Source of the DNA: Burkholderiales bacterium
GTDB lineage: Bacteria > Pseudomonadota > Gammaproteobacteria > Burkholderiales > SG8-41
Length of the DNA: 64,000 bases
Direction: 5' to 3'
NCBI GenBank assembly: GCA_036555035.1
Contig: DATBMB010000056.1
Coordinates: forward strand, 1,267-65,266
Made by a program: the position numbers and the translations under genes. The notes beneath the pieces were generated by a model that saw nothing but the letters and a program-made list of their open reading frames with translations, was not told the DNA's origin and did not search any database. Below are positions 13,470 to 41,943 of this stretch, piece by piece (the stretch's first letter is position 1; every line of letters starts with the position of its first letter).

Positions 13470-13479
13470 GCTTCCTATC

Positions 13480-16032: not shown

Positions 16033-16041
16033 GCATTCTCC

Positions 16042-16069: not shown

Positions 16070-16106
16070 TTGCCGCGCAGCACCTCAACCGCGCAAATTC
16101 AGGGGG

Positions 16107-16478: not shown

Positions 16479-16513
16479 GAAGAGCCTATCTCGATCTGCA
16501 TTCTACCCACGCT

Positions 16514-19367: not shown

Positions 19368-19391
19368 ATCAAGCGCGGGCGACGAAGTACT

Positions 19392-20579: not shown

Positions 20580-20602
20580 GCGCGGGGAGCCTACCCCTCC
20601 CC

Positions 20603-20812
20603 TCAGTCCCGCGCAACCATCACGTCCGATGCCTTGATCACCGCGTAAGCGGCGTCGCCGGCCTTGAGCTTCAGTTCGTCCACGGCTTCGTTCGTGATCG
20701 ATGCCGTGACGATCGCTCCCGCCGCGATCTCGATTTTCACGTGAGCGGTTGTCTGCCCTTTGGTGACCTGGGTCACCTTGCCTTTGAGCACATTGCGAGC
20801 ACTGAGCTTCAT
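20603..20812 (-). CDS. mop: Molbindin (Mop / single TOBE domain molybdate-tungstate binding protein)
   Basis: 69 aa, MKLSARNVLKGKVTQVTKGQTTAHVKIEIAAGAIVTASITNEAVDELKLKAGDAAYAVIKASDVMVA, a canonical Mop sequence. Its ATG overlaps the tupA stop (TAATG). Confidence 0.9.
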   Translation of the reverse strand: MKLSARNVLKGKVTQVTKGQTTAHVKIEIAAGAIVTASITNEAVDELKLKAGDAAYAVIKASDVMVARD

Positions 20813-22343: not shown

Positions 22344-22350
22344 CGTGCGC

Positions 22351-23055
22351 TCAGCCGTAGCGCCGCTGGGCGGCTTCCTTGACCCAGTACGCGGCCGCGT
22401 TCAGGGAGAGGACGAGCGTGATGAGGATGATCCCGAGGCCCAGCGCGAGCGGGAGATCGCCCTTGCTGGTTTCGAGCGCGATCGCGGTTGTCATGACGCG
22501 CGTGACGCCGTCGATATTGCCGCCCACGATGATCACGGCGCCGACCTCCGCAGCGGCGCGGCCGAATCCCGCCAGCACGATCGTCACCAGCGAGAATCGC
22601 GTGTCCCACAGCAGGGTGAGCGCGGATGCCGCCGGACCGGCTCCGAGAGAGCGCAGCTGCTCGCGGTATTCCTGCCACGTGTCCTCGATCACCTGGCGCG
22701 ACAGCGCCGCCACGATGGGCGCGATCAGGATCGTCTGCGCGATGATCATCGCGCCGGGCGTGAATAGGATGCCGAACTCGCCGAGCGGACCGGCCCGGGA
22801 CAACATCAGGTACACGATAAGACCGACCACCACCGGGGGCAGGCCCATGAGCGCGTTCAACAGCACTATCAGCGCGCGGCGGCCAGGAAAGCGCCCGACT
22901 GCAATTGCCGCACCGAGCGGCAAGCCGATCAGGCTCGCGAGAAGCACCGCCGTGAGGCTCACACGCAGCGACAGCAGCACGATGTCGACGACCGCGGCGT
23001 CAAACCGCGCGATCATTCGGCCGGCTTCACCGACCGCCGCGAAGATTTCATTCAT
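22351..23055 (-). CDS. tupB: Tungstate ABC transporter permease
   Basis: 234 aa polytopic protein with the EAA-type loop GFGRAAAEVGAVIIVGGNIDGVTRVMTTAI, typical of TupB. Confidence 0.88.
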   Translation of the reverse strand: MNEIFAAVGEAGRMIARFDAAVVDIVLLSLRVSLTAVLLASLIGLPLGAAIAVGRFPGRRALIVLLNALMGLPPVVVGLIVYLMLSRAGPLGEFGILFTPGAMIIAQTILIAPIVAALSRQVIEDTWQEYREQLRSLGAGPAASALTLLWDTRFSLVTIVLAGFGRAAAEVGAVIIVGGNIDGVTRVMTTAIALETSKGDLPLALGLGIILITLVLSLNAAAYWVKEAAQRRYG

Positions 23056-23056
23056 G

Positions 23057-23102
23057 GAGCGTGTTATGCTTTATGAGACATAACTAATCGTTTAACACGC
23101 TC
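23057..23102. promoter_or_regulatory. Nested inverted repeats in the divergent tupB / regulator promoter region (candidate operator)
   Basis: The outer perfect 10-bp inverted repeat is GAGCGTGTTA (23057-23066) with TAACACGCTC (23093-23102). The inner perfect 6-bp repeat is GTTATG-N10-CATAAC. The region is locally AT-rich. Confidence 0.4.
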
Positions 23103-23136
23103 AAGCTTAGCCAATCGCAATAGCGTCCATCTACTT

Positions 23137-24219
23137 ATGCCTAATGATGCATATGCAGCGATCGGCCCCGCTGTTCGTTGGCTGGCCGAAGGCCGATCCA
23201 TCGATTCGCGCCTGCTCCCGCTGCTGCGCGCCGTAGCCAAAACCGGCTCGCTCAACAGGGCGGTGGCGTCGCAGGGACTTTCCTATCGCCACGCGTGGGG
23301 TCTGATCGGGAAGATGGAGCGCACGCTGGGCCGGTCGCTGGTCGTGATGCAGCGTGGCCGCGGCGCAAAGCTGAGTCCGTTTTCACTCAAGCTCCTGGAA
23401 GCCGACGACACCGCCACCCGGGTCATCGAGCGGGAACTGGCCGCCACCGTGCGTGCGCTCGGGCGCGCGACGCCGCTCACGCTCGACGCACCGCGCGGAA
23501 TGCCGCTGCTGATCCACGCAAGCCACGACTTCGCGCTCGCCGCGTTACGGGACCTGGTAGCGGAATCAGGCGCTGCCGAAGTGGAGCTGCACTTTCGCGG
23601 CAGTCTGGAGTGCCTCGCGAGCCTCGCGCGAGGAGAATGCGACGTCGCCGGCTTCCACGTGCCGGATGCGTCCACCGGCCGCTCGGCGTTCGAGCCCTAC
23701 CGCCCGCTCCTGCGCTCGCGAGGGCTGCGTCTCGTGCGCTTTGTCGACCGCCGCCAGGGGCTGATCGTTTCCCGGGGCAATCCGAAGCGGTTGCTGTCGC
23801 TTGCCGATCTCGCTGCGAAAGGCGCCCGCTTCATCAACCGTCAGTCCGAATCCGGCACGCGCCTGGCCCTCGACCGCCTGCTGGGCGCGGCCGGCCTCAG
23901 GCCGTCGGAAATCAAGGGTTATCAGAGCGAGGAGTTCACTCACGCCGCCGTCGCGGCGACCGTGGCGAGCGGCATGGCGGACGCGGGGTTCGGCATCGAA
24001 GCCGCTGCGCGGCAACATCACCTCGATTTCGTCCCGCTCGCGAACGAGCGCTATTTTCTGGCCGCGCGGCAGGCAACGCTCGCCCGGCCCGCCGCTCGCG
24101 CCCTGCTCACCGCCATCAAGAGCCCGGCATTCGAGAAGCGAATTCAGGCTCTTCCGGGCTACGCGGCGCCCGGTATCGGCGAGGTCATCCGGGTACGCGA
24201 GGCCATCCCGTCGGCGTAG
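23137..24219 (+). CDS. Transcriptional regulator: ModE-type HTH fused to a periplasmic-binding-protein-like (oxyanion-binding type) sensor domain
   Basis: The N-terminus GSLNRAVASQGLSYRHAWGLIGKMERTLGRSLVVMQRGRGAKLSPF is ModE-like. The C-terminal ~230 aa are PBP-like (LRFVDRRQGLIVSRGNP...INRQSESGTR...ADAGFGIEAAA). Confidence 0.8.
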   Translation: MPNDAYAAIGPAVRWLAEGRSIDSRLLPLLRAVAKTGSLNRAVASQGLSYRHAWGLIGKMERTLGRSLVVMQRGRGAKLSPFSLKLLEADDTATRVIERELAATVRALGRATPLTLDAPRGMPLLIHASHDFALAALRDLVAESGAAEVELHFRGSLECLASLARGECDVAGFHVPDASTGRSAFEPYRPLLRSRGLRLVRFVDRRQGLIVSRGNPKRLLSLADLAAKGARFINRQSESGTRLALDRLLGAAGLRPSEIKGYQSEEFTHAAVAATVASGMADAGFGIEAAARQHHLDFVPLANERYFLAARQATLARPAARALLTAIKSPAFEKRIQALPGYAAPGIGEVIRVREAIPSA

Positions 24220-24282
24220 GCCCCGGTCCGGGAAATGGGCGTAGAATTTCCTGACACTTCGTTGCCGGCTCCGCCCTGCCCC

Positions 24283-25557
24283 ATGAATGATCCCGTCCAA
24301 AACCTGCACGCCCTGAGCTGCGCCGACGACTACGATCCCAATTCGATGCCGGTCGCTAAAGCGCGCGAGGTCATCGCGCGCTTCCTTTCCCCCGTGAACG
24401 CCATCGAGCGCGTCAACCTGCGTGCCGCCCTCGGGCGCGTCCTTGCCGAGGATGTGGTTTCGCCCTTGAACGTGCCCGCCCACGACAACTCCGCGATGGA
24501 CGGTTACGCCGTGCGCTTCGCGGATCTGAAAGCCGACGGCGAGGTTTCCCTCAAGAACGTCGGAAGCTCCTTTGCCGGCGCGCCATTCAAGGGGACCGTG
24601 GCGGCCGGGCAATGCGTGCGCATCATGACGGGCGGTGTCGTGCCGCCGGGCACCGACACCATCGTGATGCAGGAGCACGTCAAGGCCGGGAAGGACGGCG
24701 TCGCCGTCGGCCCCGGCCACAAGAAGGGACAGAATCTGCGCCGCGCAGGCGAGGACCTCAAGGTCGGCCAAGTCGCATTGAAGCGCGGCCTGGCGCTCCG
24801 TCCCGCCGAGATCGGGCTCATCTCATCGCTCGGGATCGGCGAGGTCGGCGTCTACCGCCGGCTGCGCGCCGCGTTCTTCTCCACCGGCGACGAGCTGGTT
24901 TCGATCGGCACGCAGCCCGGGGAAGGCCAGATCTTCGACAGCAACCGCTACACGATTCACGGCATGCTGACCCGCCTCGGCTGCGAGGTGATCGACATGG
25001 GCGTTGTGCGCGACGACCCGAAGCTGCTGGAGAAGGCGTTTCACGATGCCGCCGCGGCCGCGGACGTGGTGATCACGAGCGGCGGCGTGTCGGTCGGCGA
25101 GGCGGACTTCGTAAAGGAGCTGCTGAACAAGCTGGGCGAGGTGGTGTTCTGGAAGATCGCGATGAAGCCGGGGCGTCCCCTCGCCTACGGCAAGATCGGC
25201 GCGGCGCACTTCTTCGGCCTGCCGGGCAACCCGGTGTCGGTGATGGTGACCTTCTACCAGTTCGTGCGCGATGCGCTGCTCGTTCTCTCCGGCCGCGATC
25301 CCGTGCCGCCGCTGCCGACGTTCAAGGTTTCATGCACCTCCAGCCTCAAGAAGGCGCCCGGCCGCACCGAGTTCCAGCGCGGCATTCTCACGCAGGACTC
25401 CGCCGGCGCCTGGAGCGTGCGCGTCACCGGCGAGCAGGGGTCGGGGATACTCCGCTCGATGTCGGAGGCGAACTGCTTCATCATCCTGGCGACCGAACAG
25501 GGGAACGTGACGCCGGGGACGATGGTCGACGTGCAGGTGTTGGAAGGCCTGGTCTGA
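24283..25557 (+). CDS. moeA: Molybdopterin molybdotransferase
   Basis: MoeA pattern ...[11 protein letters not shown]...[18 protein letters not shown]...[14 protein letters not shown]...GLPGNPVS. I chose the ATG at 24283. Confidence 0.92.
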
Positions 25558-25573: not shown

Positions 25574-26074
25574 TTGGCGGGGACACCGTTGCTGACAAGG
25601 ATCCTGGGGACCCGGGGCGCCATCGTGCTCGCGGTCCTGCTCGGGATGCTCGCGGGCATCGGGGGCTTCACGTTCCTCTACGCCGAGGGGCTCTCGTACA
25701 TGAGTGACGACCCGAAGGTGTGCGTGAACTGCCACATCATGCAGCCCCAGTTCGATTCCTGGCAGAAGGCGAGCCACCACACCGTCGCCACCTGCGTCCA
25801 GTGCCATCTGCCGCACGGATTCATTGGCAAGTACTACTCCAAGGCCGAGAACGGCTACCATCATTCGGTGGCGTTCACCTTCCAGAATTTCCACGAGCCG
25901 ATCATGATCAAGGAGAAGAGCAGCCGGATCCTTCAGGACAACTGCCTGGCTTGCCACGGCGGCCTGGTACACGAGCAAATCGCCCGCGCCGCGGACGGTT
26001 CCGGCGAGGTCCAGTGCGTGCATTGCCACCGCTCGGTGGGGCACGGCACGCCCGCGGGACTCGGGCGCCGGTAG
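25574..26074 (+). CDS. nrfH: Tetraheme NapC/NirT-family quinol dehydrogenase, cytochrome c nitrite reductase small subunit
   Basis: 166 aa with an N-terminal TM helix and four CxxCH motifs (CVNCH, CVQCH, CLACH, CVHCH). It lies directly upstream of nrfA. The TTG start is uncertain. Confidence 0.85.
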
Positions 26075-26107
26075 GGAGGCAGGGTTACGCAAATGAGAGG
26101 GTGCACC

Positions 26108-27562
26108 ATGAGGAAATTCCAACACGGCGCTTCGCGCGCGGTCCTGATCGGCGTCATCGTGGCGGTGGCCGTCGCCTCCGCGGGCGTCACCGCGCTGCTG
26201 GTCAACATCTTCGAGCGCAAGAGCGAGGCGCGCAATCCCTACGTGCGCCTGGTCGAGGTGACCGAGAACACCACCGATCCGAAGCAGTGGGGCATCAACT
26301 GGCCCAAGCAGTACGACTCCTACCTGCTCACGGCCCAGACCACGCGGACGAAGTTCGGCGGGCACGGCGGGAGCGAGGCGCTGCCGGAAGAGAAGATCGC
26401 GCGCGACCCGTGGCTGAAGCGCATGTTCCTGGGCTACGCGTTCTCGATCGACTATCGCGACCGCCGCGGGCACGCCTACATGCTCGCCGACCAGGAAGCG
26501 ACCAAGCGCTTGACGAAGCCGCAGACGGGCTCCTGCCTGCACTGCCACGCCTCGGTGATGCCGCTCTACCGCGAGCTCGGCAAGGGAGATGCAGCCAAGG
26601 GCCTCGCAGAGAGCTACAAATATTCGTATCAGGAACTGAACAAGAAGCTGCACGACTCCGGCCACGCGCATCCGGTTTCCTGCGTGGATTGCCACGACCC
26701 CAAGACCATGGCGTTGCGCGTGACACGCCCTGGGTTCATCGAAGGCATCCGCCTGCTCGCGGCGTCGGACGCGCCGGTCGCGCACCTGCCATCGATCGAG
26801 CGCTGGCGCGCCGGCGGCAAGAAGACCCCCTATGACCCGAACGATGCGTCGCGCGGCGAGCTGCGGTCTTATGTCTGCGGCCAGTGCCACGTCGAGTACT
26901 ACTGCTCCTCCCAGATGAAGCTCACCTTCCCGTGGGGCAAGGGCCTGCGCGCGGCGGACCAGGAGAAGTTCTGGAATGAAACGAAATTCGCCGACGGCGC
27001 CCGCTTCTTCGACTACAAGCACGCGGAGACCGGCGCGCCGATCCTGAAGGCCCAGCATCCGGAGTTCGAGTTGTGGAGCCAAGGCGTGCATGCGCGCTCC
27101 GGCGTGGCATGCGCCGACTGCCACATGCCCTACGTGCGCGACGGCGCCACCAAGATTTCCGACCACTGGGTGCGCAGCCCGCTGCTCAACATCAATAACG
27201 CGTGCCAGACGTGCCACCGGGTGCCCGAGGCGGAGCTCAAGGCGCGCGTGGAGACGATCCAGCAGCGCAACTTCGAGCTGATGCAGCGCGGGGGCGCGGC
27301 GATAGTCGCGTTGATCGACGCGATCGTGAGGGCGAAAAAGGAAGGCGCGACCGAGGCGCAACTGCGGCCGGCGCTCGAGCTGCAGCGCAGCGCGCAGTGG
27401 CGGCTCGACTTCATCGCTGCGGAGAACTCGATGGGCTTCCATGCGCCGCAGGAAGCGGCCATGGTGCTCGGAGAGGCGCTCGACTACGCGCGCCAGGGAG
27501 AACTGGCGGCCCTGCGCTGGCGATCGCCCGTTGCGTCCGCGGCGGCAAAGCCCAAGCCCTGA
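26108..27562 (+). CDS. nrfA: Pentaheme cytochrome c nitrite reductase (ammonia-forming), CxxCH-type first heme
   Basis: Five heme motifs appear in NrfA order: CLHCH, CVDCH, CGQCH, CADCH, CQTCH. CGQCH and CADCH are identical to E. coli NrfA as recalled. I chose the ATG at 26108, preceded by GAGAGGG; an alternative ATG is at 26093. Confidence 0.9.
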
Positions 27563-27574: not shown

Positions 27575-27627
27575 GGAAAAGGTGTCAGGAACCTTTTCGC
27601 CGCGAAAAGGTTCCTGACACCTTTTCC
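27575..27627. repeat. 53-nt near-perfect palindrome (26-nt arms, 1-nt centre) between convergent nrfA and the first radical SAM gene; likely a bidirectional terminator or REP-like element
   Basis: GGAAAAGGTGTCAGGAACCTTTTCGC, then c, then GCGAAAAGGTTCCTGACACCTTTTCC. It starts 13 nt after the nrfA stop and contains the last 14 sense codons plus the stop codon of the radical SAM gene. Confidence 0.6.
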
Positions 27628-28571
27628 AAGGACCAGGTCTCGTTGGCGTGCCGAAGGAGGCCCGGGTCCGAGCGGCACGCCTCGATGAACTCGCGCACTT
27701 CGCGCGAGCGCCAGGCCTCACGGTAGGCGTTCCAGGCCTCCTCCAGAGAGTCGCTACGCAGGTCGGCGGACGCGAACGGCAGCGCGTTCAGGAGCTTCAC
27801 CTTTCCGTTTGGGACCACCAGCAGCATCGCCTGCGGGCTCGCGAGCCGCTCCTCCAGTTCGGTGAGGATGTCCCACGGGTAGATTGAGAGCCCGGTCGCC
27901 GCTGCGCGGGATTTCGCGTGATCGCGTAGCGCCTCAACCGCCCCCTGCCAGTCGCGTTCCGAGCAGGCCAGCTTGTCCCAGGTAGCCGCCGCGCGCCCGA
28001 GGCGCATCAGCGGCCCGGTGACAAAGGTGCTGCAGCCCAGCTCGACCGCCAGGTCGTAGGTGCCGACCGCATCGCGGATATTCCACCGCGTGGGAACGAA
28101 CACGAGCTGGGGCGCGAGGCCGCGGACTGCCAGCCGTCGGATGGCTCCAATAGCCGCATCGAAGCTCGATCCCGGGCGCACGCGCTCGTGCATCTCGGCC
28201 GTTGCGCCGTCCACCGACACCTGCACGCATTGGACCTTCAGCCGCGCCAGGCGCGCGGCTGCGGCGTCATCGATATGAGACCCGTCAGTCTCGATTTTCA
28301 GGGCGACGCCACTCGCCGCGAGTAGCTCGGCAAGCTCCCAGAAATGGGAGACCCCAAGCGGCTCGCCCCCGCCGAAAGCGACATACGGGATGCCGGAGGC
28401 GACGATGTGGCGACCGAGCGCCAGCGCCTCGGCGCGCGTCAGCTCATCCGGCCAGGCCTTGTCGGGGCCGGATTCCTCGCAGCAGGTGACGCAGCGGGCC
28501 CCGCAGCGGTTGGTCAGCTGCCAGGCAAGAAAAAGGGGCGCGCGGTATTCGGTTACCGCGCGCCCCGGCAT
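27585..28571 (-). CDS. Radical SAM enzyme, PqqE/MftC-like, cysteine-poor C-terminal domain (paralog 1)
   Basis: APLFLAWQLTNRCGARCVTCCEESGPDK contains the CX3CX2C motif. Other matches are AFGGGEPL, LKIETDG, VQVSVDG and the C-terminal LLVVPNGKVKLLNALPFASADLRSDSLEEAWNAYREAW. I chose the ATG at 28571, preceded by GAGGTGG. Confidence 0.85.
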   Translation of the reverse strand: MPGRAVTEYRAPLFLAWQLTNRCGARCVTCCEESGPDKAWPDELTRAEALALGRHIVASGIPYVAFGGGEPLGVSHFWELAELLAASGVALKIETDGSHIDDAAAARLARLKVQCVQVSVDGATAEMHERVRPGSSFDAAIGAIRRLAVRGLAPQLVFVPTRWNIRDAVGTYDLAVELGCSTFVTGPLMRLGRAAATWDKLACSERDWQGAVEALRDHAKSRAAATGLSIYPWDILTELEERLASPQAMLLVVPNGKVKLLNALPFASADLRSDSLEEAWNAYREAWRSREVREFIEACRSDPGLLRHANETWSLEKVSGTFSRRKGS

Positions 28572-28607: not shown

Positions 28608-28626
28608 CGAGGGGAGTATCCCCTCG
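28608..28626 (-). promoter_or_regulatory. Stem-loop immediately downstream of the precursor-peptide ORF (possible attenuator or mRNA stabiliser)
   Basis: CGAGGGG-AGTAT-CCCCTCG forms a 7-bp GC-rich stem. On the mRNA it begins 12 nt after the peptide stop. No U-tract follows. Confidence 0.35.
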
Positions 28627-28638: not shown

Positions 28639-28797
28639 TCAGGTGAAGCGGATGTACGGCTGGGCCATGACCTGCTCGGAAACGTCCTCCATCTTCGGCG
28701 TTTCCCAGTTCAGGCGCTCGGCCGGCTTGATCTTCTGGGCCTTCTCTTCCTGTTCCGTCTTTTCGCCCTGCTGCAGGTTCACTTTCATGTCGCCCAT
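28639..28797 (-). CDS. 52-aa candidate precursor peptide (PqqA-like C-terminal core)
   Basis: The ATG at 28797 is preceded by a strong AGGAGG 5 nt upstream. The peptide is MGDMKVNLQQGEKTEQEEKAQKIKPAERLNWETPKMEDVSEQVMAQPYIRFT. It is wedged between two radical SAM genes, and a PqqD-like gene lies in the same operon. Confidence 0.65.
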   Translation of the reverse strand: MGDMKVNLQQGEKTEQEEKAQKIKPAERLNWETPKMEDVSEQVMAQPYIRFT

Positions 28798-28811
28798 AGT
28801 GCCTCCTGTAT

Positions 28812-29771
28812 TCAAATTTGCGAAATCGCCAACCGGCGCCAACCATTGGCATCGGCATGCTGCAATTCATCCCCGCTCGCGCGGCGGACCGCACCTCGCA
28901 TCGCCTCGTCCCGCCAGGCGCCGCGGTATGCCGCCCACGCCTGCGCCAGGCTGTCGCGCCGCAGGTCGGCGCATATCTGCGGGAGCGCCGCCGCGACCTT
29001 CACCCACCCGTTGGGAAGCACCAGCAACGTCGCCGGAGCCTCGTCCAGGCTTGCACTCAGCGCCTCGCCCAACGTGAAGGGAGAATAGCAGAATTCCATC
29101 CGCCCTCCAAGATTGCGGGCCTCCCGTTCGAGCAGATCCCGGAAATCTCGATACTGTCCGGCAGCCGGTTCGAGCCGGTCCCACAGGCGCGCCGCGGTCC
29201 CGACCCTCATCAGCTTGCCGGTATTGAACCGGAACGCGCCCAGCCCCGCCGCGCGCTGGATCACCGCCCCGGCTTCGTGAATATTAAGGCGCGTCGGTGC
29301 AAATGTGATCTCCAGGGGCAAGCCCGCCGCCCGCACCGCCCGGCACGCCGCATGCGCCTTCTCGAGCGAGCCGCCCGGGCGCTGGCGCCCATAGACCTCC
29401 TGGCTGTCGCCATCGAGGCTCACCTGGATTGAGCGGACCGGCAGCCGGGCGAGTCTCTCTGCGATGGCGGTATCGAGCCGCTGGCCATTGGTTTCGATCT
29501 TGAGCTGCACGCCACCCGCCCCGAGGGCTTCCGCGAGCCGGAAGAAGTGCGGCACCACCAGCGGCTCTCCGCCGCACAGCATGACGTACGGCACCTCGTT
29601 GCGGATGATCTCGACCACGACCCCCATAGCCTCCTCTGCATCCAGCTCGTCCGGGAGGCGCTTGCCGGGCGCCGAATCGGTGCAGCAGTGCAGGCACGCG
29701 AGATCGCAGTCGCGCGTGATCTGCCACGAGACGAAGAGGGGTGCTCGCAGGCTGTCGATCCGGTTTTCCAT
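28812..29771 (-). CDS. Radical SAM enzyme, PqqE/MftC-like, cysteine-poor C-terminal domain (paralog 2)
   Basis: The ATG at 29771 gives MENRIDSLRAPLFVSWQITRDCDLACLHCCTDSAPGK. Other matches are LCGGEPL, LKIETNG, IQVSLDG and LLVLPNGWVKVAAALPQICADLRRDSLAQAWAAYRGAW. The listed 668-aa ORF is an upstream extension that overlaps the prenyltransferase gene in another frame. Confidence 0.85.
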   Translation of the reverse strand: MENRIDSLRAPLFVSWQITRDCDLACLHCCTDSAPGKRLPDELDAEEAMGVVVEIIRNEVPYVMLCGGEPLVVPHFFRLAEALGAGGVQLKIETNGQRLDTAIAERLARLPVRSIQVSLDGDSQEVYGRQRPGGSLEKAHAACRAVRAAGLPLEITFAPTRLNIHEAGAVIQRAAGLGAFRFNTGKLMRVGTAARLWDRLEPAAGQYRDFRDLLEREARNLGGRMEFCYSPFTLGEALSASLDEAPATLLVLPNGWVKVAAALPQICADLRRDSLAQAWAAYRGAWRDEAMRGAVRRASGDELQHADANGWRRLAISQI

Positions 29772-29782: not shown

Positions 29783-30712
29783 TCAGCCCAGCAGGAGGCC
29801 CACGCCAAACAGCGTGACGGCGACCGCATAGCAGCCGATGATGGCGCGGATGGCAGGCACGAACTGGCGCGGGGCTTCGTAGGTGTGCAGGGCGATTCGC
29901 GCGCTTGTCAGGAGCAAAGGCAACGCCAGCAGCGCAGACAGGCACGCTACGGGAAAGACGCCGGTGGCGACACCGGCCGCGGCAGTGCAAAGCCCCGCCG
30001 CAGCAAGCGCGAGGTAGAGCCACACTCCGCGCCGCCGCCCCAGCCGCACGACGAGATTGCGTTTTCCCACGAGCCGGTCCTGGTGATAGTCGGGGATGGC
30101 GTTTACCACGGCGAGCGACATGATCAGGAATCCCGGCACCAGCGATGCCCAGAACGCACCCCACGAAAGCGCCCGGGTGTGGAGATAAAGGCTCCCCAGC
30201 ACCATCCACGGGCCATAGGACAACGCGATCACGGTTTCGCCGAGGCCGCGATAGGCCCAGCGAATGGGCGGCGCCACGTAAAAAATGGCAGCGAGTCCTC
30301 CGAGCACCGCGAACGCCAGGATCGGCCAGCCGCCCCGGTAGGTGAGATAAACGCCCACGCCCAGAGCGCCGGCAAACGCTGCCACGCCCAGCCACAGCAC
30401 CCACCCGGACATGGGCGCCTCCTCGTCCGGATTGAACACGCGATCGGTGCCCATCTGCGAATCGAAATACTCGTTGAACGCTTCGACCCCGATGACTGCA
30501 AGCACCACGCCGCCGAGTCCGCTCCAGAAGACACTTGCATTGAACGCGCCTTCCATCGCATGCGCCCAGGCAGCGCCCAGGAGGTAGGGCAGCAGCCCCG
30601 CATACAGAAAGAAACGGTAACGAACGAGGCTCGCAACCCGCAGCAGCACGCGCAACGGCGAGCGCTCCGCCCCGAGGCGCTGATGCGGCGGGGTCGTCAG
30701 AGATAGACCCAT
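29783..30712 (-). CDS. UbiA-superfamily aromatic prenyltransferase, MenA-like
   Basis: About 309 aa and polytopic. The first Asp-rich motif is FNEYFDSQMGTD. The second is PDYHQDRLVGKRNLVVRLG. Recalled MenA equivalents are NDYGDAVKGSD and D...D...GK.TL.VRLG. The ATG at 30712 overlaps the upstream radical SAM gene by 16 nt. Confidence 0.85.
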   Translation of the reverse strand: MGLSLTTPPHQRLGAERSPLRVLLRVASLVRYRFFLYAGLLPYLLGAAWAHAMEGAFNASVFWSGLGGVVLAVIGVEAFNEYFDSQMGTDRVFNPDEEAPMSGWVLWLGVAAFAGALGVGVYLTYRGGWPILAFAVLGGLAAIFYVAPPIRWAYRGLGETVIALSYGPWMVLGSLYLHTRALSWGAFWASLVPGFLIMSLAVVNAIPDYHQDRLVGKRNLVVRLGRRRGVWLYLALAAAGLCTAAAGVATGVFPVACLSALLALPLLLTSARIALHTYEAPRQFVPAIRAIIGCYAVAVTLFGVGLLLG

Positions 30713-31698
30713 TGGTGCAGCGTTGCAGTCTTGCGCGGATCCTGCGCCAGGTCCTCGACAAACTTCGCGACGCGCGGATCCTGCCACGCGCGCTGGAATC
30801 GCGCCCAGATCTCGCCAAGCGTCTGCCGCCGCAGGTCGCCGCACACGAACGGCAACGCGTTGATGAGCTTGACCAGGCCGTTGGGCAGCACGATCAGGAG
30901 CGCTGCCGGGTGATGCAGGCGATAGCGCAGTTCCTCGAGCAGCCCCATCTCGTGGAAATAGACCCGCATTCGGCCGCGGTATTCCTCGGTCTTGCCGTGA
31001 AGCACGGCGAAAAATTCATCGTACTGTGCATCGGAAGGCGCCATCCGGTGCCAGGTCTTGACGGCGTTGCCGGTATACATCGTGCGCCCGGTATAGAAGC
31101 TGTAGGCGCCGAGCTCGGCGGCGAGGTCCACTGCAGTGCCGATCTCGTGGGTGTTGAAGCACGTGGGTGAGTAGTTGATCTCGATCGGCACTCCCGCGGC
31201 GCCCAGATTGCGGATCCCTTGGACTGTCAGGTCGAAATCGCCCCGCACCCGCATGCGGTTGAAGGTCTCGCGCGAGGCGCCGTCCAGGCTCACCTGCACG
31301 GCTTTCACGCCCAGGCGCTTCAGGCGCTCGCAGTTCTCCGCAGAGAGATAGGCGCCGTTGGTCTCGATCTTGAGCTGACCGTTGCGCTTGCAGACATACT
31401 CCACCATATCGAAGAAGCGCGGATGCACCATCGGTTCCCCGCCCGAGAACGACAGATAGGGCACCTCGAGGTCGATTGCCTGCTCGAGAACGCTGAATAC
31501 CTGCTCGTCGCTCAGCTCGTCGTGGAACGCCTTGCCGGGGCCGCTTTCCTCGATGCAATGGAGGCAGGCGAGATTGCATTCGTTGGTCACCTGCCATGCG
31601 ATATAGAGCGGCGCGCCGAGATCTCCCGAGCCGGTCTCGGCTGGAGTGGATTCCGGCACCGGGGAGCGCACCCCAGCACCACTCACCTGCGTGGCCAC
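30697..31698 (-). CDS. Radical SAM enzyme, PqqE/MftC-like, cysteine-poor C-terminal domain (paralog 3)
   Basis: GAPLYIAWQVTNECNLACLHCIEESGPGK, FSGGEPM, LKIETNG, VQVSLDG and LLIVLPNGLVKLINALPFVCGDLRRQTLGEIWARFQRAW. I chose the GTG at 31698, with GAGGA 8 nt upstream and 4 nt after the PqqD-like stop. The listed TTG at 31740 is the alternative. Confidence 0.85.
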   Translation of the reverse strand: MATQVSGAGVRSPVPESTPAETGSGDLGAPLYIAWQVTNECNLACLHCIEESGPGKAFHDELSDEQVFSVLEQAIDLEVPYLSFSGGEPMVHPRFFDMVEYVCKRNGQLKIETNGAYLSAENCERLKRLGVKAVQVSLDGASRETFNRMRVRGDFDLTVQGIRNLGAAGVPIEINYSPTCFNTHEIGTAVDLAAELGAYSFYTGRTMYTGNAVKTWHRMAPSDAQYDEFFAVLHGKTEEYRGRMRVYFHEMGLLEELRYRLHHPAALLIVLPNGLVKLINALPFVCGDLRRQTLGEIWARFQRAWQDPRVAKFVEDLAQDPRKTATLHQWVYL

Positions 31699-31702: not shown

Positions 31703-31954
31703 TCAATCCTCGACCAGTCCCTTTTGCCGCAGCTCGGCAATGAACGCGACAGCCTCGCGCTCGATCGCCCCGCCTTCGTCGCGGAAGCGCGCCTTCAGTA
31801 GTCCCGGGATGTCACGCTCCGCGCGCCCCGCCTGGATCTCGCGCACCACCGCGGTCGCGGTGGGATTGAGGGTGTAGACCTTCTCGGAGCGCGTCTCGAA
31901 CAACACGCCGCCGAACTTCTCCTCGCGGAATTTGACGTACTGGGTGAGTTTCAT
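31703..31954 (-). CDS. PqqD/MftB-family peptide chaperone (RiPP recognition element)
   Basis: 83 aa, MKLTQYVKFREEKFGGVLFETRSEKVYTLNPTATAVVREIQAGR...AVAFIAELRQKGLVE, a typical PqqD-family pattern. The radical SAM gene follows immediately. Confidence 0.8.
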   Translation of the reverse strand: MKLTQYVKFREEKFGGVLFETRSEKVYTLNPTATAVVREIQAGRAERDIPGLLKARFRDEGGAIEREAVAFIAELRQKGLVED

Positions 31955-32011: not shown

Positions 32012-32530
32012 TCAGTACTTGCCGTGCACCTTGTAGATATAGTTCGTGAGCTCGCTGGTCTGCATCGCCATGCGGTTCACGATGAGGTGCACGACGCGGA
32101 AGATCGCGCGCATGACGCGGTAGACGATGACCGGCTCGCGCTCGAGCAGCGATTCCAGCTTCTCGCGCTCCAGGCACAGGACCTGAGTTGGCCCGGTCGC
32201 GCGCAACGCCGCGTAGTGCGGCCGGCCGTCCATGAAGCCGAGTTCCCCGGCGAGGTCGCCCTTGGTGAGGAGGTGCAGGTTGATCCACTGCCCGTCCGCC
32301 TCGACCTGCCGGGCCACCGCCAGCGCCCCGCCCACGATCACGTAGAGGTGATTGTCGCTGGCGCCCTGTCGGACGAGGACCTCCCCGTCCGCCAGGTTGC
32401 GCACAGACACCAGGTCGGCGAGAACGCTGCACTGGTCCCCGGTCAGCTCCACCGCCAGCGCCGCGTTGCGCAGCAGCTCCAGCTTTTGCTTGGTTTCCTG
32501 GCTCTTTCCCCGGGCAGCCGCGTCAGGCAC
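32012..32530 (-). CDS. Stand-alone cyclic-nucleotide-binding domain protein (no DNA-binding domain)
   Basis: 172 aa with the cNMP-binding beta-roll pattern GEVLVRQGASDNHLYVIVGGALAV...GDLAGELGFMDGRPHYAALRA. The GTG start is preceded by AAGGAG. Confidence 0.8.
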   Translation of the reverse strand: MPDAAARGKSQETKQKLELLRNAALAVELTGDQCSVLADLVSVRNLADGEVLVRQGASDNHLYVIVGGALAVARQVEADGQWINLHLLTKGDLAGELGFMDGRPHYAALRATGPTQVLCLEREKLESLLEREPVIVYRVMRAIFRVVHLIVNRMAMQTSELTNYIYKVHGKY

Positions 32531-32595: not shown

Positions 32596-32609
32596 TTGAT
32601 CTAGATCAA
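32596..32609. promoter_or_regulatory. Perfect FNR/Anr-type box TTGAT-N4-ATCAA in the divergent promoter region
   Basis: TTGATCTAGATCAA matches the consensus exactly. Its centre is about 72 nt from the cNMP-binding gene start and about 117 nt from the fumA ATG. On the minus strand a TAATAA/CATAAT hexamer lies 18-20 nt beyond the box, which fits class II geometry. Confidence 0.7.
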
Positions 32610-32719: not shown

Positions 32720-34237
32720 ATGACGACCATCAAGCAGCAAGACTTCATTCAAAGCATTGCCGACGCGTTCCAGTTCATCTCCTACTACCACCCCGTCGAT
32801 TTCATCCGCGCGATGGGCAAGGCCTACGAAGGCGAGCAGTCGCCTGCCGCCAAGAATGCCATCGCGCAGATCCTCATGAACAGCCGCATGTCGGCGGAGG
32901 GCCATCGCCCCGTCTGCCAGGACACAGGCATCGCAGTCGTGTTCCTCAAGATCGGAATGAACGTGCGCTGGGACGCGACGATGAGCGTCCAGGAGATGGT
33001 GGATGAAGGGGTGCGCCGCGCTTACACCGACAAGGACAATCCGCTGCGCGCTTCCGTGCTCTCGGATCCGGACGGCGCCCGCAAGAATACGCGTGACAAC
33101 GCGCCGGCAGTGGTCCACATGGAGGTCGTGCCGGGCGACCGCCTCGAGGTCAAGCTCGCTGCCAAGGGCGGCGGCTCCGAGAGCAAGTCGCGCTTTGCCG
33201 TTCTCAATCCGAGCGACGACGTGGTGGAGTGGATACTCGGGCAGATCCCGACCATGGGGGGAGACTGGTGCCCGCCCGGGATGCTGGGTGTGGGTATCGG
33301 CGGCACGCCCGAGAAAGCCATGGTGATGGCGAAGGAATCGCTGATGGCGCCGATCGACATCAACGACCTGAAGAAGCGCGGTGCGAAGAACCGCGCCGAG
33401 GAGCTGCGGCTCGAGCTCCACGAGAAAGTCAACGCCCTGGGAATGGGCGCTCAAGGGCTCGGCGGCCTGACCACGGTCCTCGACGTCAAGGTTCTCGACT
33501 ACCCCACTCACGCGGTGATGAAGCCGGTGGCCATTGTTCCCAACTGCGCAGCCACCCGCCACATCGAGTTTCATCTCGACGGCAGCGGGCCGGCACGCTT
33601 CGAGCCGCCAAGCCTCGACAACTGGCCCAAGATTGCCCTCGATCTCGGCGCCGGTGCGACGCGCGTCGACCTCGAGAAGCTGACGAAAGCCGAAACCGCG
33701 AAGTGGAAGGCAGGCGACCGGCTGCTGTTGACCGGCAAAATCCTGACCGGCCGCGACGCAGCCCACAAGCGCCTGACCGATCTCATTGCGAAAGGCGAGA
33801 AGCTGCCGGTGGATCTCAGGAATCGCCTCATCTACTACGTCGGTCCCGTGGACGCGGTTCGCGACGAAGTCGTGGGCCCCGCCGGCCCCACCACCTCCCG
33901 CCGCATGGACAAGTTCATGGACACCATGCTCGGCAAAACCGGAATGCTCGGTTCGATCGGGAAATCGGAGCGCGGCGCAGACGCCGTGAAGGTCATCAAG
34001 CAGCACAAGGGTGTTCACCTCATCGCAATTGGTGGTGCGGCCTACCTGGTGGCAAAAGCCATTCGCGGGGCACGCGTGCTCGCGTTCAAGGAGCTCGGCA
34101 TGGAGGCGGTGCACGAGTTCGACGTCAAGGACATGCCGGTGACCGTCGCCGTCGATACGAACGGAAACGCGGTGCACGAAAGCGGCCCGCGCGAATGGCG
34201 CGCGAAGATCGGCAAGATTCCCGTAACGGTGGCCTGA
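32720..34237 (+). CDS. fumA: Class I (Fe-S dependent) fumarate hydratase, fused alpha/beta form
   Basis: 505 aa with ...RPVCQDTGIAVVFLKIG..., ...GGGSESKS... and C-terminal ...GPAGPTTSRRMD...IGKSERG, typical of class I fumarase. Confidence 0.92.
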   Translation: MTTIKQQDFIQSIADAFQFISYYHPVDFIRAMGKAYEGEQSPAAKNAIAQILMNSRMSAEGHRPVCQDTGIAVVFLKIGMNVRWDATMSVQEMVDEGVRRAYTDKDNPLRASVLSDPDGARKNTRDNAPAVVHMEVVPGDRLEVKLAAKGGGSESKSRFAVLNPSDDVVEWILGQIPTMGGDWCPPGMLGVGIGGTPEKAMVMAKESLMAPIDINDLKKRGAKNRAEELRLELHEKVNALGMGAQGLGGLTTVLDVKVLDYPTHAVMKPVAIVPNCAATRHIEFHLDGSGPARFEPPSLDNWPKIALDLGAGATRVDLEKLTKAETAKWKAGDRLLLTGKILTGRDAAHKRLTDLIAKGEKLPVDLRNRLIYYVGPVDAVRDEVVGPAGPTTSRRMDKFMDTMLGKTGMLGSIGKSERGADAVKVIKQHKGVHLIAIGGAAYLVAKAIRGARVLAFKELGMEAVHEFDVKDMPVTVAVDTNGNAVHESGPREWRAKIGKIPVTVA

Positions 34238-34247
34238 GGACGATCGC

Positions 34248-36017
34248 ATGCAATCCGTACAGACGGATGTCGTGGTGGTGGGCGGCGGGGGTGCGGGGTT
34301 GCGCGCTGCGATCGCAGTGGCGGAGAGTGATCCGCGCCTGCGCATCGCGCTCGTGTCAAAGGTCGTGCCCATGCGCAGCCACACCGTGGCCGCCGAAGGC
34401 GGCTCCGCAGGGGTCATCCGCACGGACGACAGCCTCGACAATCACTTCGACGACACCGTGGGCGGCGGTGACTGGCTGTGCGACCAGGACGTCGTCGAGT
34501 ATTTCGTGGCCCATTGCACGGAGGAGATGACCCAGCTCGAGCACTGGGGCTGCCCGTGGAGCCGCAAGGACGACGGGCACGTCAACGTGCGCTTCTTCGG
34601 CGGCATGAAGGTGCAGCGCACGTGGTTCGCCGCGGACAAGACCGGCTTCCACATGCTGCACACGCTGTTCCAGACTTCGCTCAAGTACCCGTCAATCAAA
34701 CGCTACGACGAGTTCTTCTGCGCCGACCTGATCGTCGAGGACGGGCGGGTGCAGGGCGTGGTCGCGATCGACATCGCGAGCGGCGAGTTCCATCTCCTGG
34801 AGTGCAAGGCGGCGATTATCTGCACCGGGGGCGCCGGGCGCGTCTTCGGCCAAAACACCAACGCCGGGATCGTCACCGGCGACGGCATGGGCATCGCGTT
34901 CCGCCACGGCGTGCCGCTCCGCGACATGGAATTCGTGCAGTGGCATCCAACGGCGCTCCCGGGAACCGGGGTGCTCATCACCGAAGGCTGCCGCGGCGAA
35001 GGCGGCATCCTCACCAACAAGGACGGCTACCGCTACCTGCAGGACTACGGCCTGGGCCCGCCCGATCCGTGGCCGCGCCCGAAGGCGATGGAGCTCGGCC
35101 CTCGCGACCGCCTGTCGCAGGCGTTCTGGCACGAGGAGCAGAAGGGCCGCACGGTGAGCACTCCACTGGGCCATGCAGTATGGCTCGACCTGCGTCAATT
35201 GGGAGCCGCCAAGATCCACGAGCGGCTGCCGATGATTACCGAAGTCGCTAAGGTCTTCGCGGGCGTCGACCCCGTGGTCGCACCGATTCCGGTGCGTCCC
35301 GCGGTGCACTACACGATGGGCGGCATTCTCTGCAACGGCCAGACCGCGACGCCCCTCAAGGGTCTATTTACAGCGGGCGAATGCTCGAGCGTGGGCATCC
35401 ACGGCGCCAACCGCCTCGGCTCCAACTCGCTTGCGGAAATCGTGGTATTTGGCAAGGTCGCAGGCGAGGAGGCGGCGCGGCACGCCAAGGTGACCGGGGC
35501 GGGCAAGAGCGATGCGGCGCGCCAGCAGGCGGAGGCCGTGGAAAAGCGGCTGCTCGGCCTGCTCGGCAAGGACAAAGGCGAGCGCGTCGCGACGATACGC
35601 GACGAAATGCACGAAGCCATGGAGACCGGCGTCGGCATTTTTCGCAAGGCCGACGGCATGCAGGCGGCGTGCGCCAAGCTCGTTCAGCTTCGCGACCGCT
35701 ACCGGCGCGGCCTCAAGCTCGATGACCGCAACCGCGCGTTCAACACCGAATGGCTGTCGGCGATCGAGCTCGGCTTCACGCTCGAGCTCGCCGAGGTGAT
35801 CGCGCAATCTGCGCTCCATCGCAAGGAATCTCGCGGCGCGCACACCCGTCTCGACGAGTTCAAGGAGCGCGATGACGCCAACTACCTGAAGCACACGCTT
35901 GCCCACCGCACCGGCGATGGACCGCCCCGGATCGAGTACACGCCGGTGACCATCACCAAGTCTCCGCCCAAGACGCGCGTCTACGGCGGCGAGGGCAAGA
36001 AAGCCGTAATGACCTGA
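34248..36017 (+). CDS. frdA: Fumarate reductase flavoprotein subunit
   Basis: 589 aa with the FAD fingerprint DVVVVGGGGAGLRAAI, SHTVAAEGG (histidyl-FAD site) and HPTALPGTGVLITEGCRGEGG. frdBCD follow. Confidence 0.93.
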   Translation: MQSVQTDVVVVGGGGAGLRAAIAVAESDPRLRIALVSKVVPMRSHTVAAEGGSAGVIRTDDSLDNHFDDTVGGGDWLCDQDVVEYFVAHCTEEMTQLEHWGCPWSRKDDGHVNVRFFGGMKVQRTWFAADKTGFHMLHTLFQTSLKYPSIKRYDEFFCADLIVEDGRVQGVVAIDIASGEFHLLECKAAIICTGGAGRVFGQNTNAGIVTGDGMGIAFRHGVPLRDMEFVQWHPTALPGTGVLITEGCRGEGGILTNKDGYRYLQDYGLGPPDPWPRPKAMELGPRDRLSQAFWHEEQKGRTVSTPLGHAVWLDLRQLGAAKIHERLPMITEVAKVFAGVDPVVAPIPVRPAVHYTMGGILCNGQTATPLKGLFTAGECSSVGIHGANRLGSNSLAEIVVFGKVAGEEAARHAKVTGAGKSDAARQQAEAVEKRLLGLLGKDKGERVATIRDEMHEAMETGVGIFRKADGMQAACAKLVQLRDRYRRGLKLDDRNRAFNTEWLSAIELGFTLELAEVIAQSALHRKESRGAHTRLDEFKERDDANYLKHTLAHRTGDGPPRIEYTPVTITKSPPKTRVYGGEGKKAVMT

Positions 36018-36026
36018 GGACCGCGC

Positions 36027-37177: not shown

Positions 37178-37178
37178 C

Positions 37179-37535: not shown

Positions 37536-37572
37536 TGCAGTAGATTCGGCAACAACGAAAGGGGAGAACGCC

Positions 37573-39018: not shown

Positions 39019-39022
39019 TCAG

Positions 39023-41928: not shown

Positions 41929-41943
41929 CCCTCCTATCGCGTT

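Follow-up and report, generated by a model that had tools for sequence, protein, structure and literature searches.

The window, by which we mean the whole stretch of 64,000 nucleotides (64 kb) of Burkholderiales DNA that was analysed, carries on its minus strand a cassette of genes in the order PqqD, rSAM1, UbiA, rSAM2, peptide, and rSAM3 (rSAM, radical SAM). The features of the cassette and its borders are the following.

32596..32609, no strand: perfect FNR-type palindrome TTGATCTAGATCAA, in the divergent promoter region between the cassette operon and the fumarate hydratase-frdABCD operon.
32012..32530, minus strand: cyclic-nucleotide-binding-domain protein at the head of the operon, also found in loci L003 and L005.
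31703..31954, minus strand: PqqD-family peptide chaperone (RiPP recognition element, RRE), matching PF05402 with an E value of 1.5e-10, above the Pfam threshold.
30697..31698, minus strand: radical SAM paralogue 1 (rSAM1), the most conserved of the three and the nearest to the rSAM of the minimal cassettes.
29783..30712, minus strand: MenA-like UbiA-family membrane prenyltransferase, with NExxDxxxGTD and DxxQDRxxGK conserved.
28812..29771, minus strand: radical SAM paralogue 2 (rSAM2), with CX3CX2C and four more conserved Cys residues.
28802-28807, minus strand: Shine-Dalgarno motif AGGAGG, 4 nt from the ATG, inside the 14-nt gap after the rSAM2 stop codon.
28639..28797, minus strand: precursor peptide gene, 52 amino acids, MGDMKVNLQQGEKTEQEEKAQKIKPAERLNWETPKMEDVSEQVMAQPYIRFT, with the ATG at 28797 and the stop codon at 28639-28641.
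Peptide residues 1-30, minus strand: charged, variable N-terminus.
Peptide residues 31-40, 28678-28707, minus strand: WETPKMEDVS, the putative PqqD/RRE recognition motif.
Peptide residues 41-52, 28642-28677, minus strand: core, EQVMAQPYIRFT, of which the VMAQPYIRFT part is invariant.
28608..28626, minus strand: intergenic hairpin CGAGGGGA-TAC-TCCCCTCG, just 3' of the peptide stop codon.
28525..28566, minus strand: terminator-like hairpin with a 13-bp stem (11 G-C pairs) and a 6-nt loop, followed by TTTTTCTTGC.
27585..28571, minus strand: radical SAM paralogue 3 (rSAM3), with CX3CX2C at C27/C31/C34 of a 332-residue ORF and no SPASM cysteine set.

The cassette is flanked by nrfHA and fumarate hydratase-frdABCD, with two DASS transporters and an FdnGHI-like enzyme as further neighbours, and the cyclic-nucleotide-binding-domain protein may have a regulatory role. 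The minus-strand location, the conservation of the last 10 residues of the peptide, and the UbiA and quinone-linked partners had been passed over in the sequence-only reading of this DNA, which had dealt with the small ORF.

The 52-codon ORF is a real gene under purifying selection. It is present as the sequence-only reading had described it, and so is its AGGAGG motif, although the spacer is 4 nt long and not 5 nt; an SD-like motif lies ahead of the peptide start in most homologous loci. Pairwise codon differences among 58 loci amount to 42% at third positions versus 7% at positions 1 and 2, making the third positions about six times more variable. Despite the use of several synonymous codons, the last 10 residues are invariant among these loci, with the Tyr kept in 58 of 58 and the Met of M-A-Q-P-Y, which takes the place of the PqqA cross-link Glu as had been claimed, in 56 of 58. 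The peptide gene is found in every homologous cassette for which the fetched sequence spans its position. A supposed second peptide copy in L172 was rejected, being an unrelated 43-residue ORF.

The peptide has 1,109 metagenomic homologues at E <= 10, with (V/I)MAQPYIRFT as their C-terminus. An exhaustive HMM search among 1.84 billion proteins matches 95 representatives; about 90 of these clearly belong to the family and end in this sequence or differ from it by one residue, the rest being truncated or spurious. AQPYIRFT is encoded by more than 600 stretches in JGI metagenomes, but the metagenome scan gave only close relatives of the window peptide and so added abundance and not diversity. All 60 genome-collection loci with the peptide derive from MAGs and none from isolates, a tblastn search with the core against 72,556 plasmids gives no match, and the named copies that were seen are annotated only as “hypothetical protein.”

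The terminator-like hairpin sits within the first codons of rSAM3 and is probably an attenuator that keeps the peptide mRNA above the downstream enzyme mRNA. A comparable hairpin 3' of the peptide gene is found in most loci (42 of 58 with z < -2); the stem sequences of this post-peptide hairpin differ between clades, and its outer stem is shifted by one position between them. As expected, a hairpin or terminator after the peptide gene fits a substrate made in excess of its enzymes. The FNR palindrome is the only zero-mismatch site in the 64 kb. FNR control of the cassette was nevertheless rejected, the box being found upstream in 3 of 45 other loci, which is about the background rate.

The gene order of the window is kept in 60 species-level MAGs from the Beta-, Gamma-, and Alphaproteobacteria and the Elusimicrobiota, the complete genome CP096137.1 being among them. 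A minimal cassette of overlapping peptide, PqqD, rSAM, and UbiA genes is found in at least four other contexts (L068/L070/L071, L167, L172-174, and L175), and its single rSAM is closest to rSAM1, with 41% identity. The generic layout of an RRE-dependent radical-SAM RiPP system, composed of a short precursor, a PqqD-type RRE, and a radical SAM enzyme, is thereby present in at least 60 loci, and this conserved cassette bears out the suggestion that a precursor-type peptide is linked to a PqqD-family protein.

The neighbours of the cassette are repeatedly linked to quinones. In L175, the four cassette genes lie between nqrE and nqrF of an nqrABCDE-F-like operon, which opens with a polyprenyl-diphosphate synthase. 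Of 18 long Elusimicrobiota loci, 16 also have a polyprenyl-diphosphate synthase immediately upstream and in the same orientation, with the best matches being hepta-, solanesyl-, nona-, and octaprenyl enzymes and with small residues before the DDxxD motif; the Elusimicrobiota loci show no respiratory neighbours besides this synthase. The cassette neighbours in L166/L167 are a polyprenyl synthase, two geranylgeranyl-reductase-family flavoproteins, a TtrA-like molybdoenzyme, NrfD, an FeS subunit, and a NarJ-like chaperone. Of 24 long proteobacterial genome loci, 16 encode a NapC/NirT/NrfH quinol-dehydrogenase cytochrome and/or FrdA within 10 kb, as do 11 of 14 long metagenome loci, and L004 and L005 have a NapC-type gene inside the cassette. 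The evidence from context is a matter of correlation, and the loci are related by descent, though their arrangements differ. On the short low-GC contigs L067 and L073, the peptide and PqqD genes, in part with an rSAM gene, lie beside a BtuF/FecCD-type importer (Peripla_BP_2/FecCD), and no UbiA is seen in L073. The link to an ABC importer suggested by L067, L073, and the window at 16.5-19.4 kb was rejected, since it is absent near the cassette in L001-L060.

The sequence-only reading had aligned the last 22 residues of the peptide with a Klebsiella PqqA sequence. The sequence that it used is correct, with a 100% match to K. pneumoniae records in which the feature is annotated pqqA, and the identities W1, P4, D8, Y18, and I19 and the common end four residues past the Tyr are all as described; these identities and the shared C-terminal distance also hold against nine further real PqqA sequences. 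We compared the profile of 61 family members with that of 10 PqqAs, ungapped and anchored at the C-terminus, against column permutations, and found a score of 19.4 versus -21.7 +/- 8.6 for the permutations (p = 4e-5). The whole signal lies in the first 10 columns (p = 1e-5), whereas the last 12 columns, which form the core, are not significant (p = 0.18), so that the proposed likeness over 22 residues stands for its first part and not for the core. The hhalign comparison of the peptide with PqqA covers those 10 columns only, with a probability of 54% and P = 1.2e-4, and the motif in common is W-x-x-P-x-hydrophobic-x-[DE]-hydrophobic. Membership in the PqqA family, for which an alignment to PF08042/TIGR02107 had been suggested, is not borne out: the window peptide has no match in Pfam or NCBIfam, TIGR02107 is touched by only 1 of the 61 relatives (E value of 0.035), and PqqA does not appear in the exhaustive profile search among 1.84 billion proteins.

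Because PqqA and lasso-peptide leaders carry the same motif, it is a putative PqqD-docking site. The lasso-peptide precursor model NF033524 (paeninodin family) weakly matches 13 of the 61 members (best E value of 0.004), and the window PqqD has its best score with the lasso-type PqqD chaperone model; both results fit the earlier suggestion that the N-terminal part of the PqqA-like region may dock PqqD.

PF04055 is matched three times in the window cassette. The predicted fold of rSAM1 is nearest to the RiPP maturases SkfB, PqqE, and SuiB, with the structure matches being 6efn (E value of 7e-21 by sequence, TM score of 0.69), 6c8v, and 5v1t. The conserved Cys residues beyond CX3CX2C are C137 and C300 in rSAM1, C53, C166, C251, and C290 in rSAM2, and C35 and C119 in rSAM3. 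No SPASM or twitch motif of the CX2CX5CX3C type is found in the three enzymes, unlike typical PqqE and MftC, although rSAM2 might still bind one cluster of a non-canonical kind.

The gene, its conservation, the cassette, and its genomic contexts are direct observations, and from them we lean towards reading the ORF as the gene for the precursor in an undescribed, widespread cofactor pathway of the RiPP type, with a polyprenylated, membrane-bound redox product. The pathway product is probably a lipid-anchored redox cofactor for anaerobic respiration. A C-terminus that is invariant across phyla is what PqqA and MftA, as precursors of cofactors, show, in contrast to variable bioactive peptides. 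In the first step, the PqqD-family chaperone would bind W-x-x-P-x-[LM]-E-[DE]-V-S, as suggested by the motif similarity. A PqqE/SkfB-like radical SAM enzyme would then modify the (V/I)MAQPYIRFT core, with one enzyme acting in the minimal cassettes and three paralogues here. The target would most likely be Tyr48 or an adjacent residue; Tyr48 and the modified Tyr of PqqA are equally far from the docking motif. The chemistry must differ from that of PqqA, as had been argued before, with the E-X3-Y pair being absent and M-A-Q-P-Y standing in its place. In the third step, which the strict gene linkage suggests, UbiA would equip either the modified aromatic residue or a fragment cut from the peptide with a long all-trans polyprenyl chain. 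The repeated context points to a membrane-bound, peptide-derived redox cofactor, probably quinone-like, as the outcome of the fourth step, and this cofactor would serve quinone-dependent enzymes, which in the window organism are the NrfHA nitrite reductase, the FrdABCD fumarate reductase, and the Fdn-type formate dehydrogenase. How Tyr would become a true quinone is not apparent, since the cassette has no protease and no obvious hydroxylase or oxidase; flavoproteins that might hydroxylate are found only in L166/L167 and a Rieske protein in L017.

UbiA is a core partner because it is kept in the minimal cassettes of at least four other contexts. The protein scores 81.5 bits against PF01040 (gathering score of 34.2), and its N124-E-x-x-D128...D134 and D252-x-x-Q-D256 residues are at least 97% conserved among 48 orthologues. 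Its best matches are MenA proteins, yet it reaches 98 bits against an equivalog cut-off of 264 and 69.8 bits against TIGR00751, where the cut-off is 102. To our knowledge, all characterised UbiA-family enzymes have small-molecule acceptors, and we know of none with a peptide acceptor. The rSAMs could accordingly modify the peptide while UbiA prenylates a separate small molecule, with the peptide being a soluble cofactor, chaperone, or scaffold and the gene linkage reflecting a shared physiological role and not a shared substrate. The MenA-like best matches agree with this, and so does L073, where no UbiA adjoins the peptide, PqqD, and rSAM genes and the core Tyr is replaced by Phe. We regard it as rather unlikely, considering that four independent minimal cassettes couple the translation of UbiA to that of the rSAM gene, that no other gene in these cassettes could make an aromatic head group, and that the protein stays far under every MenA equivalog cut-off.

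The layout of RRE, radical SAM, and short precursor is also typical of bioactive RiPPs, and prenylated RiPPs exist, such as ComX and the cyanobactins. Accordingly, the peptide could be the precursor of a secreted or membrane-active prenylated lipopeptide (an antibiotic, signal, or metallophore) and not of a cofactor, and the two contigs with the genes beside a Peripla_BP_2/FecCD importer would suit a metallophore. This importer link is missing from L001-L060, however, and no cassette has an exporter, an immunity gene, or a leader protease. Unlike bioactive peptides, the core does not vary between Burkholderiales, Elusimicrobiota, and marine lineages; the cassette is also part of nqr, ttr-like, and nrf/frd operons and lies by polyprenyl synthases of the quinone-side-chain type, and we give the lipopeptide little weight.

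A role in tetrapyrrole modification, with the rSAMs acting like NirJ/AhbC/AhbD, UbiA acting like haem O or chlorophyll synthase, and the peptide and PqqD being accessory, seems very unlikely to us. The second tier of rSAM HMM matches does include AhbD, NirJ, and AhbC (E values of 1e-18 to 1e-35), UbiA weakly matches chlorophyll synthase, and the neighbours are rich in haem proteins, with hemC in L166; but the scores are all far under the family cut-offs, the nearest folds are peptide maturases, UbiA is nearer to MenA than to ChlG or CyoE, PqqD domains bind peptides, and wherever the cassette occurs, the peptide co-varies with it. A divergent PqqA serving another, anaerobic route to PQQ would share the docking motif, the W-to-Y spacing, the C-terminal length, and a PqqD-family gene with the window, but it is hardly credible with the missing Glu of E-X3-Y, which effectively refutes it, with a peptide that does not pass the PqqA models, with rSAMs scoring 46-81 bits against the 381-bit cut-off of the PqqE equivalog TIGR02109, with no pqqB or pqqC in the cassette or its homologues, and with an obligatory UbiA that has no place in PQQ synthesis.

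If the proposed cofactor pathway is correct, it would add a new class to a very short list of peptide-derived cofactors, and the enzyme would be the first UbiA-family membrane prenyltransferase in a ribosomal-peptide pathway. More tentatively, we may be dealing with the first ribosomally encoded lipoquinone-type electron carrier, its Tyr-containing MAQPYIRFT core being converted by the rSAMs and polyprenylated by the MenA-like enzyme. In uncultured anaerobes, this carrier could form the redox pool of the membrane or be bound as a cofactor by complexes of the NQR, NapC/NrfH, Frd, and Ttr types. With PQQ and mycofactocin, it would then be the third redox cofactor made from a peptide, and the first of them to carry a lipid. 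Such a carrier could explain how membrane electron carriers are supplied in uncultured soil Burkholderiales, Elusimicrobiota, and marine lineages, and it would feed low-potential respiration, that is, nitrite ammonification, fumarate respiration, and NQR-like complexes. The meaning of the finding rests on the obligatory UbiA partnership and the quinone-linked respiratory genes. The databases and literature that we searched hold no description of a peptide/PqqD/UbiA/radical SAM system; a paper on Hyphomicrobium PqqD and UbiA (PMC12423496) concerns a different, second pqqADE copy, and the quinone and radical-SAM passages of an Elusimicrobia survey (10.1101/765248) do not mention the cassette.

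Among known systems, the MenA/UbiA step of quinone synthesis shares with the cassette a UbiA-superfamily enzyme with MenA-type Asp-rich motifs, often co-operonic with a long-chain polyprenyl-diphosphate synthase and near quinone-dependent enzymes. The enzyme here differs in scoring under every MenA equivalog cut-off and in having no men, mqn, or ubi head-group genes nearby; within the minimal operon, the ribosomal peptide is the sole candidate for providing an aromatic acceptor. The maturases SkfB, PqqE, and SuiB are the best sequence and structure matches of rSAM1, with an identity of only 14-23%, whereas the C-terminal domain here has no ligands for a twitch/SPASM cluster and three rSAM paralogues surround one precursor.

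Lasso-peptide leaders have the same aromatic-x-x-P-x-L motif ahead of the core. The lasso models score under their cut-offs here (37 versus 70 bits), and the modifying enzymes are radical SAM proteins, with neither a lasso cyclase nor a leader peptidase (the B2 protease of lasso systems) in any cassette examined.

Mycofactocin is likewise a cofactor derived from a peptide: a PqqD-type chaperone serves its small precursor, and a radical SAM enzyme acts close to a C-terminal Tyr. In NCBIfam, all three rSAMs match MftC best (119-126 bits, cut-off of 265), and the MftB model gives 19 bits against a cut-off of 33. A wider resemblance, EEVS...M...Y, may connect the peptide to MftA; a full-length MftA query has no match in the plasmid collection, and the weak rSAM loci L061-L066, which are unrelated, have no MftA-like ORF. 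The MftA model has no match among the 61 members at E <= 10, and mftD, mftE, and mftF are absent here. The MftA signature IDGxCGVY-COOH (PMC5264612) is absent as well, the peptide ending in PYIRFT with a Tyr that is not C-terminal.

The PQQ system differs from the cassette in its pqqB, pqqC, and pqqF genes, which are absent here, and in the E-x-x-x-Y of PqqA, whose Glu partner is lost in M-A-Q-P-Y; the cores are not significantly similar, the peptide does not pass the PqqA HMMs, the rSAMs here have no SPASM cysteines, and a UbiA prenyltransferase is obligatory here. Common to both are a short ribosomal precursor, a stand-alone PqqD-family chaperone, and a PqqE-like radical SAM fold, together with a Tyr 17 residues past the Trp of the motif, a C-terminus 4 residues past this Tyr, and an invariant core, as expected of a cofactor precursor.

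The 52-residue peptide ORF lies on the minus strand among genes for a PqqD-family chaperone, three radical SAM paralogues (rSAM1 to rSAM3) and UbiA, a MenA-like membrane prenyltransferase, arranged as follows.

32012-32530, minus strand: cNMP-binding protein, first in gene order
31703-31954, minus strand: PqqD (PF05402, E 1.5e-10)
30697-31698, minus strand: rSAM1, 3' of PqqD in gene order
29783-30712, minus strand: MenA-like UbiA prenyltransferase (PF01040, 81.5 bits)
28812-29771, minus strand: rSAM2, between UbiA and the peptide gene
28802-28807, minus strand: Shine-Dalgarno AGGAGG, 4 nt ahead of the ATG
28797 (ATG) to 28639-28641 (stop), minus strand: peptide ORF, product MGDMKVNLQQGEKTEQEEKAQKIKPAERLNWETPKMEDVSEQVMAQPYIRFT
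28608-28626: intergenic hairpin, 3' of the peptide gene
28525-28566, minus strand: terminator-like hairpin (28535-28566) and T-tract, within the first codons of rSAM3
27585-28571, minus strand: rSAM3, last, 3' of the peptide gene

The ORF is a real gene for a conserved, translated peptide. Its AGGAGG, to which the sequence-only reading had given a spacer of 5 nt rather than the 4 nt measured, sits inside the 14-nt gap 3' of the preceding gene's stop codon. A word-indexed search at E <= 10 gave 1,109 homologues, and the best 120 are 48 to 61 aa long and, where the source gives a name, are called "hypothetical protein". When the family profile was run exhaustively over 1.84 billion representatives, 95 matches came back; none was PqqA or MftA, and about 90 are clear members whose C-terminus is (V/I)MAQPYIRFT-COOH or differs from it at one residue. 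The family consensus is W-x-x-P-x-[LM]-E-[DE]-V-S-x-x-[VI]-M-A-Q-P-Y-I-R-F-T. When the 22 C-terminal codons of 58 loci are compared in pairs, third positions differ in 42% of the comparisons and positions 1 and 2 in 7%; the final ten residues are invariant, yet two to four synonymous codons serve for each. By contrast, the first 30 residues vary and are in part dispensable, the peptide being 33 to 40 aa long in Elusimicrobiota. One low-GC contig (L073 1143-1274, protein P0195) has Phe for the core Tyr (VMAQPFIRFT), followed by an rSAM and then a binding protein and permease, with no UbiA in that place; as it is a single contig, this variant is anecdotal.

Conservation in homologous clusters, proposed earlier as a check, is borne out across GTDB, scanned at one genome per species, where the identical order PqqD-rSAM1-UbiA-rSAM2-peptide-rSAM3 occurs in 60 loci, from Burkholderiales (Casimicrobiaceae, Usitatibacter), Steroidobacteraceae, other Gamma- and Alphaproteobacteria and about 30 Elusimicrobiota. 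All 60 species-level genomes are MAGs; there is no cultured isolate among them and no copy in the plasmid collection, which may be the reason that the system has gone unstudied. Other lineages (GC 35-67%) carry a minimal operon with the peptide first, then PqqD, one rSAM and UbiA, whose genes overlap at their ends (for example L068/L070/L071, L167, L172-174 and L175). UbiA is present in these four-gene operons and is therefore a core component, and PqqD, rSAM and UbiA are fixed partners of the peptide. The sole rSAM of the minimal form stands at about the same distance from all three paralogues, with rSAM1 nearest (41%), and the three enzymes of the window thus arose by duplication of a single ancestor.

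Downstream of the peptide gene, 42 of 58 loci have a stable hairpin (z < -2). Across L001-L060, the loci with the full cassette, the stem sequences differ between Burkholderiales and Elusimicrobiota with the pairing kept, so that RNA structure and rSAM3 protein sequence appear to be co-constrained; the rSAM3 codons carrying the terminator-like hairpin encode G-R-A-V...Y-R-A-P-L-F. The hairpins fit transcription of the substrate gene in excess over the downstream enzyme gene. The divergent promoter region common to the cassette and fum-frd operons contains a perfect FNR-type palindrome, TTGATCTAGATCAA (32596-32609), the sole zero-mismatch site in 64 kb; other loci do not share it ahead of their cassettes.

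No cassette protein of the window reaches an NCBIfam equivalog cut-off. The rSAMs match MftC best, with 119-126 bits where its cut-off is 265; they retain CX3CX2C and miss the SPASM cysteine set, and the public names of rSAM1 homologues are generic. The AlphaFold model of rSAM1 (pLDDT 84) is nearest to the RiPP maturases SkfB, PqqE and SuiB, and also to BlsE, an enzyme outside the RiPP maturases. Neither a protease nor an obvious oxygen-independent hydroxylase is encoded with the peptide system.

The sequence-only reading had aligned the last 22 residues with a Klebsiella PqqA sequence, which proved exact (100% match to K. pneumoniae records, feature annotated pqqA). In an ungapped profile-profile comparison anchored at the C-terminus, with ten real PqqA sequences aligned as reference, the peptide family scores 19.4, whereas permuted columns give -21.7 +/- 8.6 (p = 4e-5). 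All of this signal lies in the first ten columns (p = 1e-5, permutation), the last twelve being at chance level (p = 0.18), so the significant likeness is confined to the W-x-x-P segment. Likewise, hhalign pairs only WekPxlEDV with WkKPAfxdL (probability 54%, P = 1.2e-4). Of 61 members searched in NCBIfam at E <= 10, 13 weakly match the model for lasso-peptide precursors of the paeninodin family and one matches the PqqA model, and the top-scoring model for the window's PqqD is the lasso-type chaperone; the common element is therefore aromatic-x-x-P-x-hydrophobic. By analogy with the established lasso and PQQ systems, it can be read as a putative recognition sequence for PqqD-type RiPP recognition elements. 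The same W-to-Y spacing as in PqqA suggests, but does not prove, that Tyr48 is the radical SAM site of action. The peptide is not PqqA, because the cross-link Glu, correctly noted earlier as missing, is replaced by an invariant Met and because it falls short of the PqqA family models.

The cassette is flanked in the window by nrfH-nrfA (25574-27562) and by class I fumarate hydratase with E. coli-type frdABCD (32720-37535; Fumarate_red_C and _D, E 1e-38 and 1e-42), and further out lie two DASS dicarboxylate transporters (37501-40552) and an FdnGHI-like formate dehydrogenase (40852-45904), near which a 700-aa protein with many 4Fe-4S ferredoxin-type domains is encoded (46737-48839, minus strand). 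Molybdate/tungstate uptake and Moco genes (11396-25557 and 49983-51158: TupA-like binding protein, ABC components, MOT1-type MFS transporter, TOBE ATPase, ModE-like regulator, moeA, moaA) are grouped about these respiratory genes. The window is an anaerobic-respiration island in what appears to be a Burkholderiales-lineage, MAG-like genome. NrfH, E. coli-type Frd and Fdn-N use menaquinone; Burkholderiales typically produce ubiquinone only.

Of the long proteobacterial loci, 16 of 24 from genomes and 11 of 14 from metagenomes have a NapC/NirT/NrfH-type tetrahaem quinol dehydrogenase and/or FrdA within 10 kb, with varying position and orientation; a NapC-type gene separates rSAM2 from the peptide gene in L004 and L005, and Sdh_cyt-FrdA-FrdB adjoins the cassette in L021 and L057. 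An alphaproteobacterial MAG (L017 10991-11838) encodes a COQ10-like START/polyketide-cyclase-family protein and a Rieske [2Fe-2S] protein directly after rSAM3. In Elusimicrobiota, a polyprenyl-diphosphate synthase is directly upstream on the same strand in 16 of 18 long loci; it matches heptaprenyl, solanesyl, nonaprenyl and octaprenyl enzymes best, and its first DDxxD motif has small residues at -4 and -5. The marine scaffold L175 reads polyprenyl-diphosphate synthase, nqrA, B, C, D, E, peptide, PqqD, rSAM, UbiA, nqrF (NqrD above its equivalog cut-off; NqrB, C, E and F slightly under theirs), and the nqrE-peptide junction recurs in L171, L176 and L178. L166/L167 carry a polyprenyl synthase, NrfD, a TtrA-like molybdoenzyme and two geranylgeranyl-reductase-family flavoproteins, then the peptide, PqqD, rSAM, UbiA, a NarJ-like chaperone, an FeS protein and MobB. 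Correlative as it is, the evidence shows the cassette placed repeatedly in operons that serve quinone-dependent respiration and the supply of polyprenyl.

The two flavoproteins directly 5' of the L167 peptide gene (1530-4209) could saturate the prenyl chain or hydroxylate a ring; one weakly resembles QhpG, LodB and GoxB, flavoenzymes that hydroxylate residues in protein-quinone cofactor formation. In a Steroidobacteraceae MAG (L008 12324-13799), the cassette is followed after 1.4 kb by another gene of the UbiA family, which is fused to a HAD-like hydrolase domain. A BtuF/FhuD-type ABC importer (Peripla_BP_2, FecCD, ATPase; 16514-19367, minus strand) lies 8-10 kb from the window's cassette and adjoins peptide-PqqD(-rSAM) in two low-GC contigs (L067 66-2993, L073 2588-4200), which might indicate salvage of the product; none is near the cassette in L001-L060.

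We infer a pathway in which PqqD would dock on WxxPxLEDV, an rSAM would modify the MAQPYIRFT core, probably at Tyr48, and UbiA would add a long polyprenyl chain, giving a membrane redox cofactor that is possibly quinone-like. UbiA might instead prenylate a separate small molecule, which we consider unlikely for an enzyme kept with the peptide even in the minimal operons, and a bioactive lipopeptide seems quite improbable next to so many respiratory genes. Tetrapyrrole modification is very doubtful, and an alternative PQQ route is scarcely credible for a core that carries Met at the Glu position. As for the favoured cofactor pathway, neither a model nor a name nor a paper for the peptide-PqqD-rSAM-UbiA system came to light in NCBIfam 20.0, in Pfam, in the protein sources or in the literature searched, and to our knowledge an obligatory UbiA prenyltransferase has been described for no RiPP class. 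The system shares its logic with the PQQ and mycofactocin pathways but differs from both in its new precursor family, its cluster-less PqqE-like rSAMs and its obligatory prenyltransferase.
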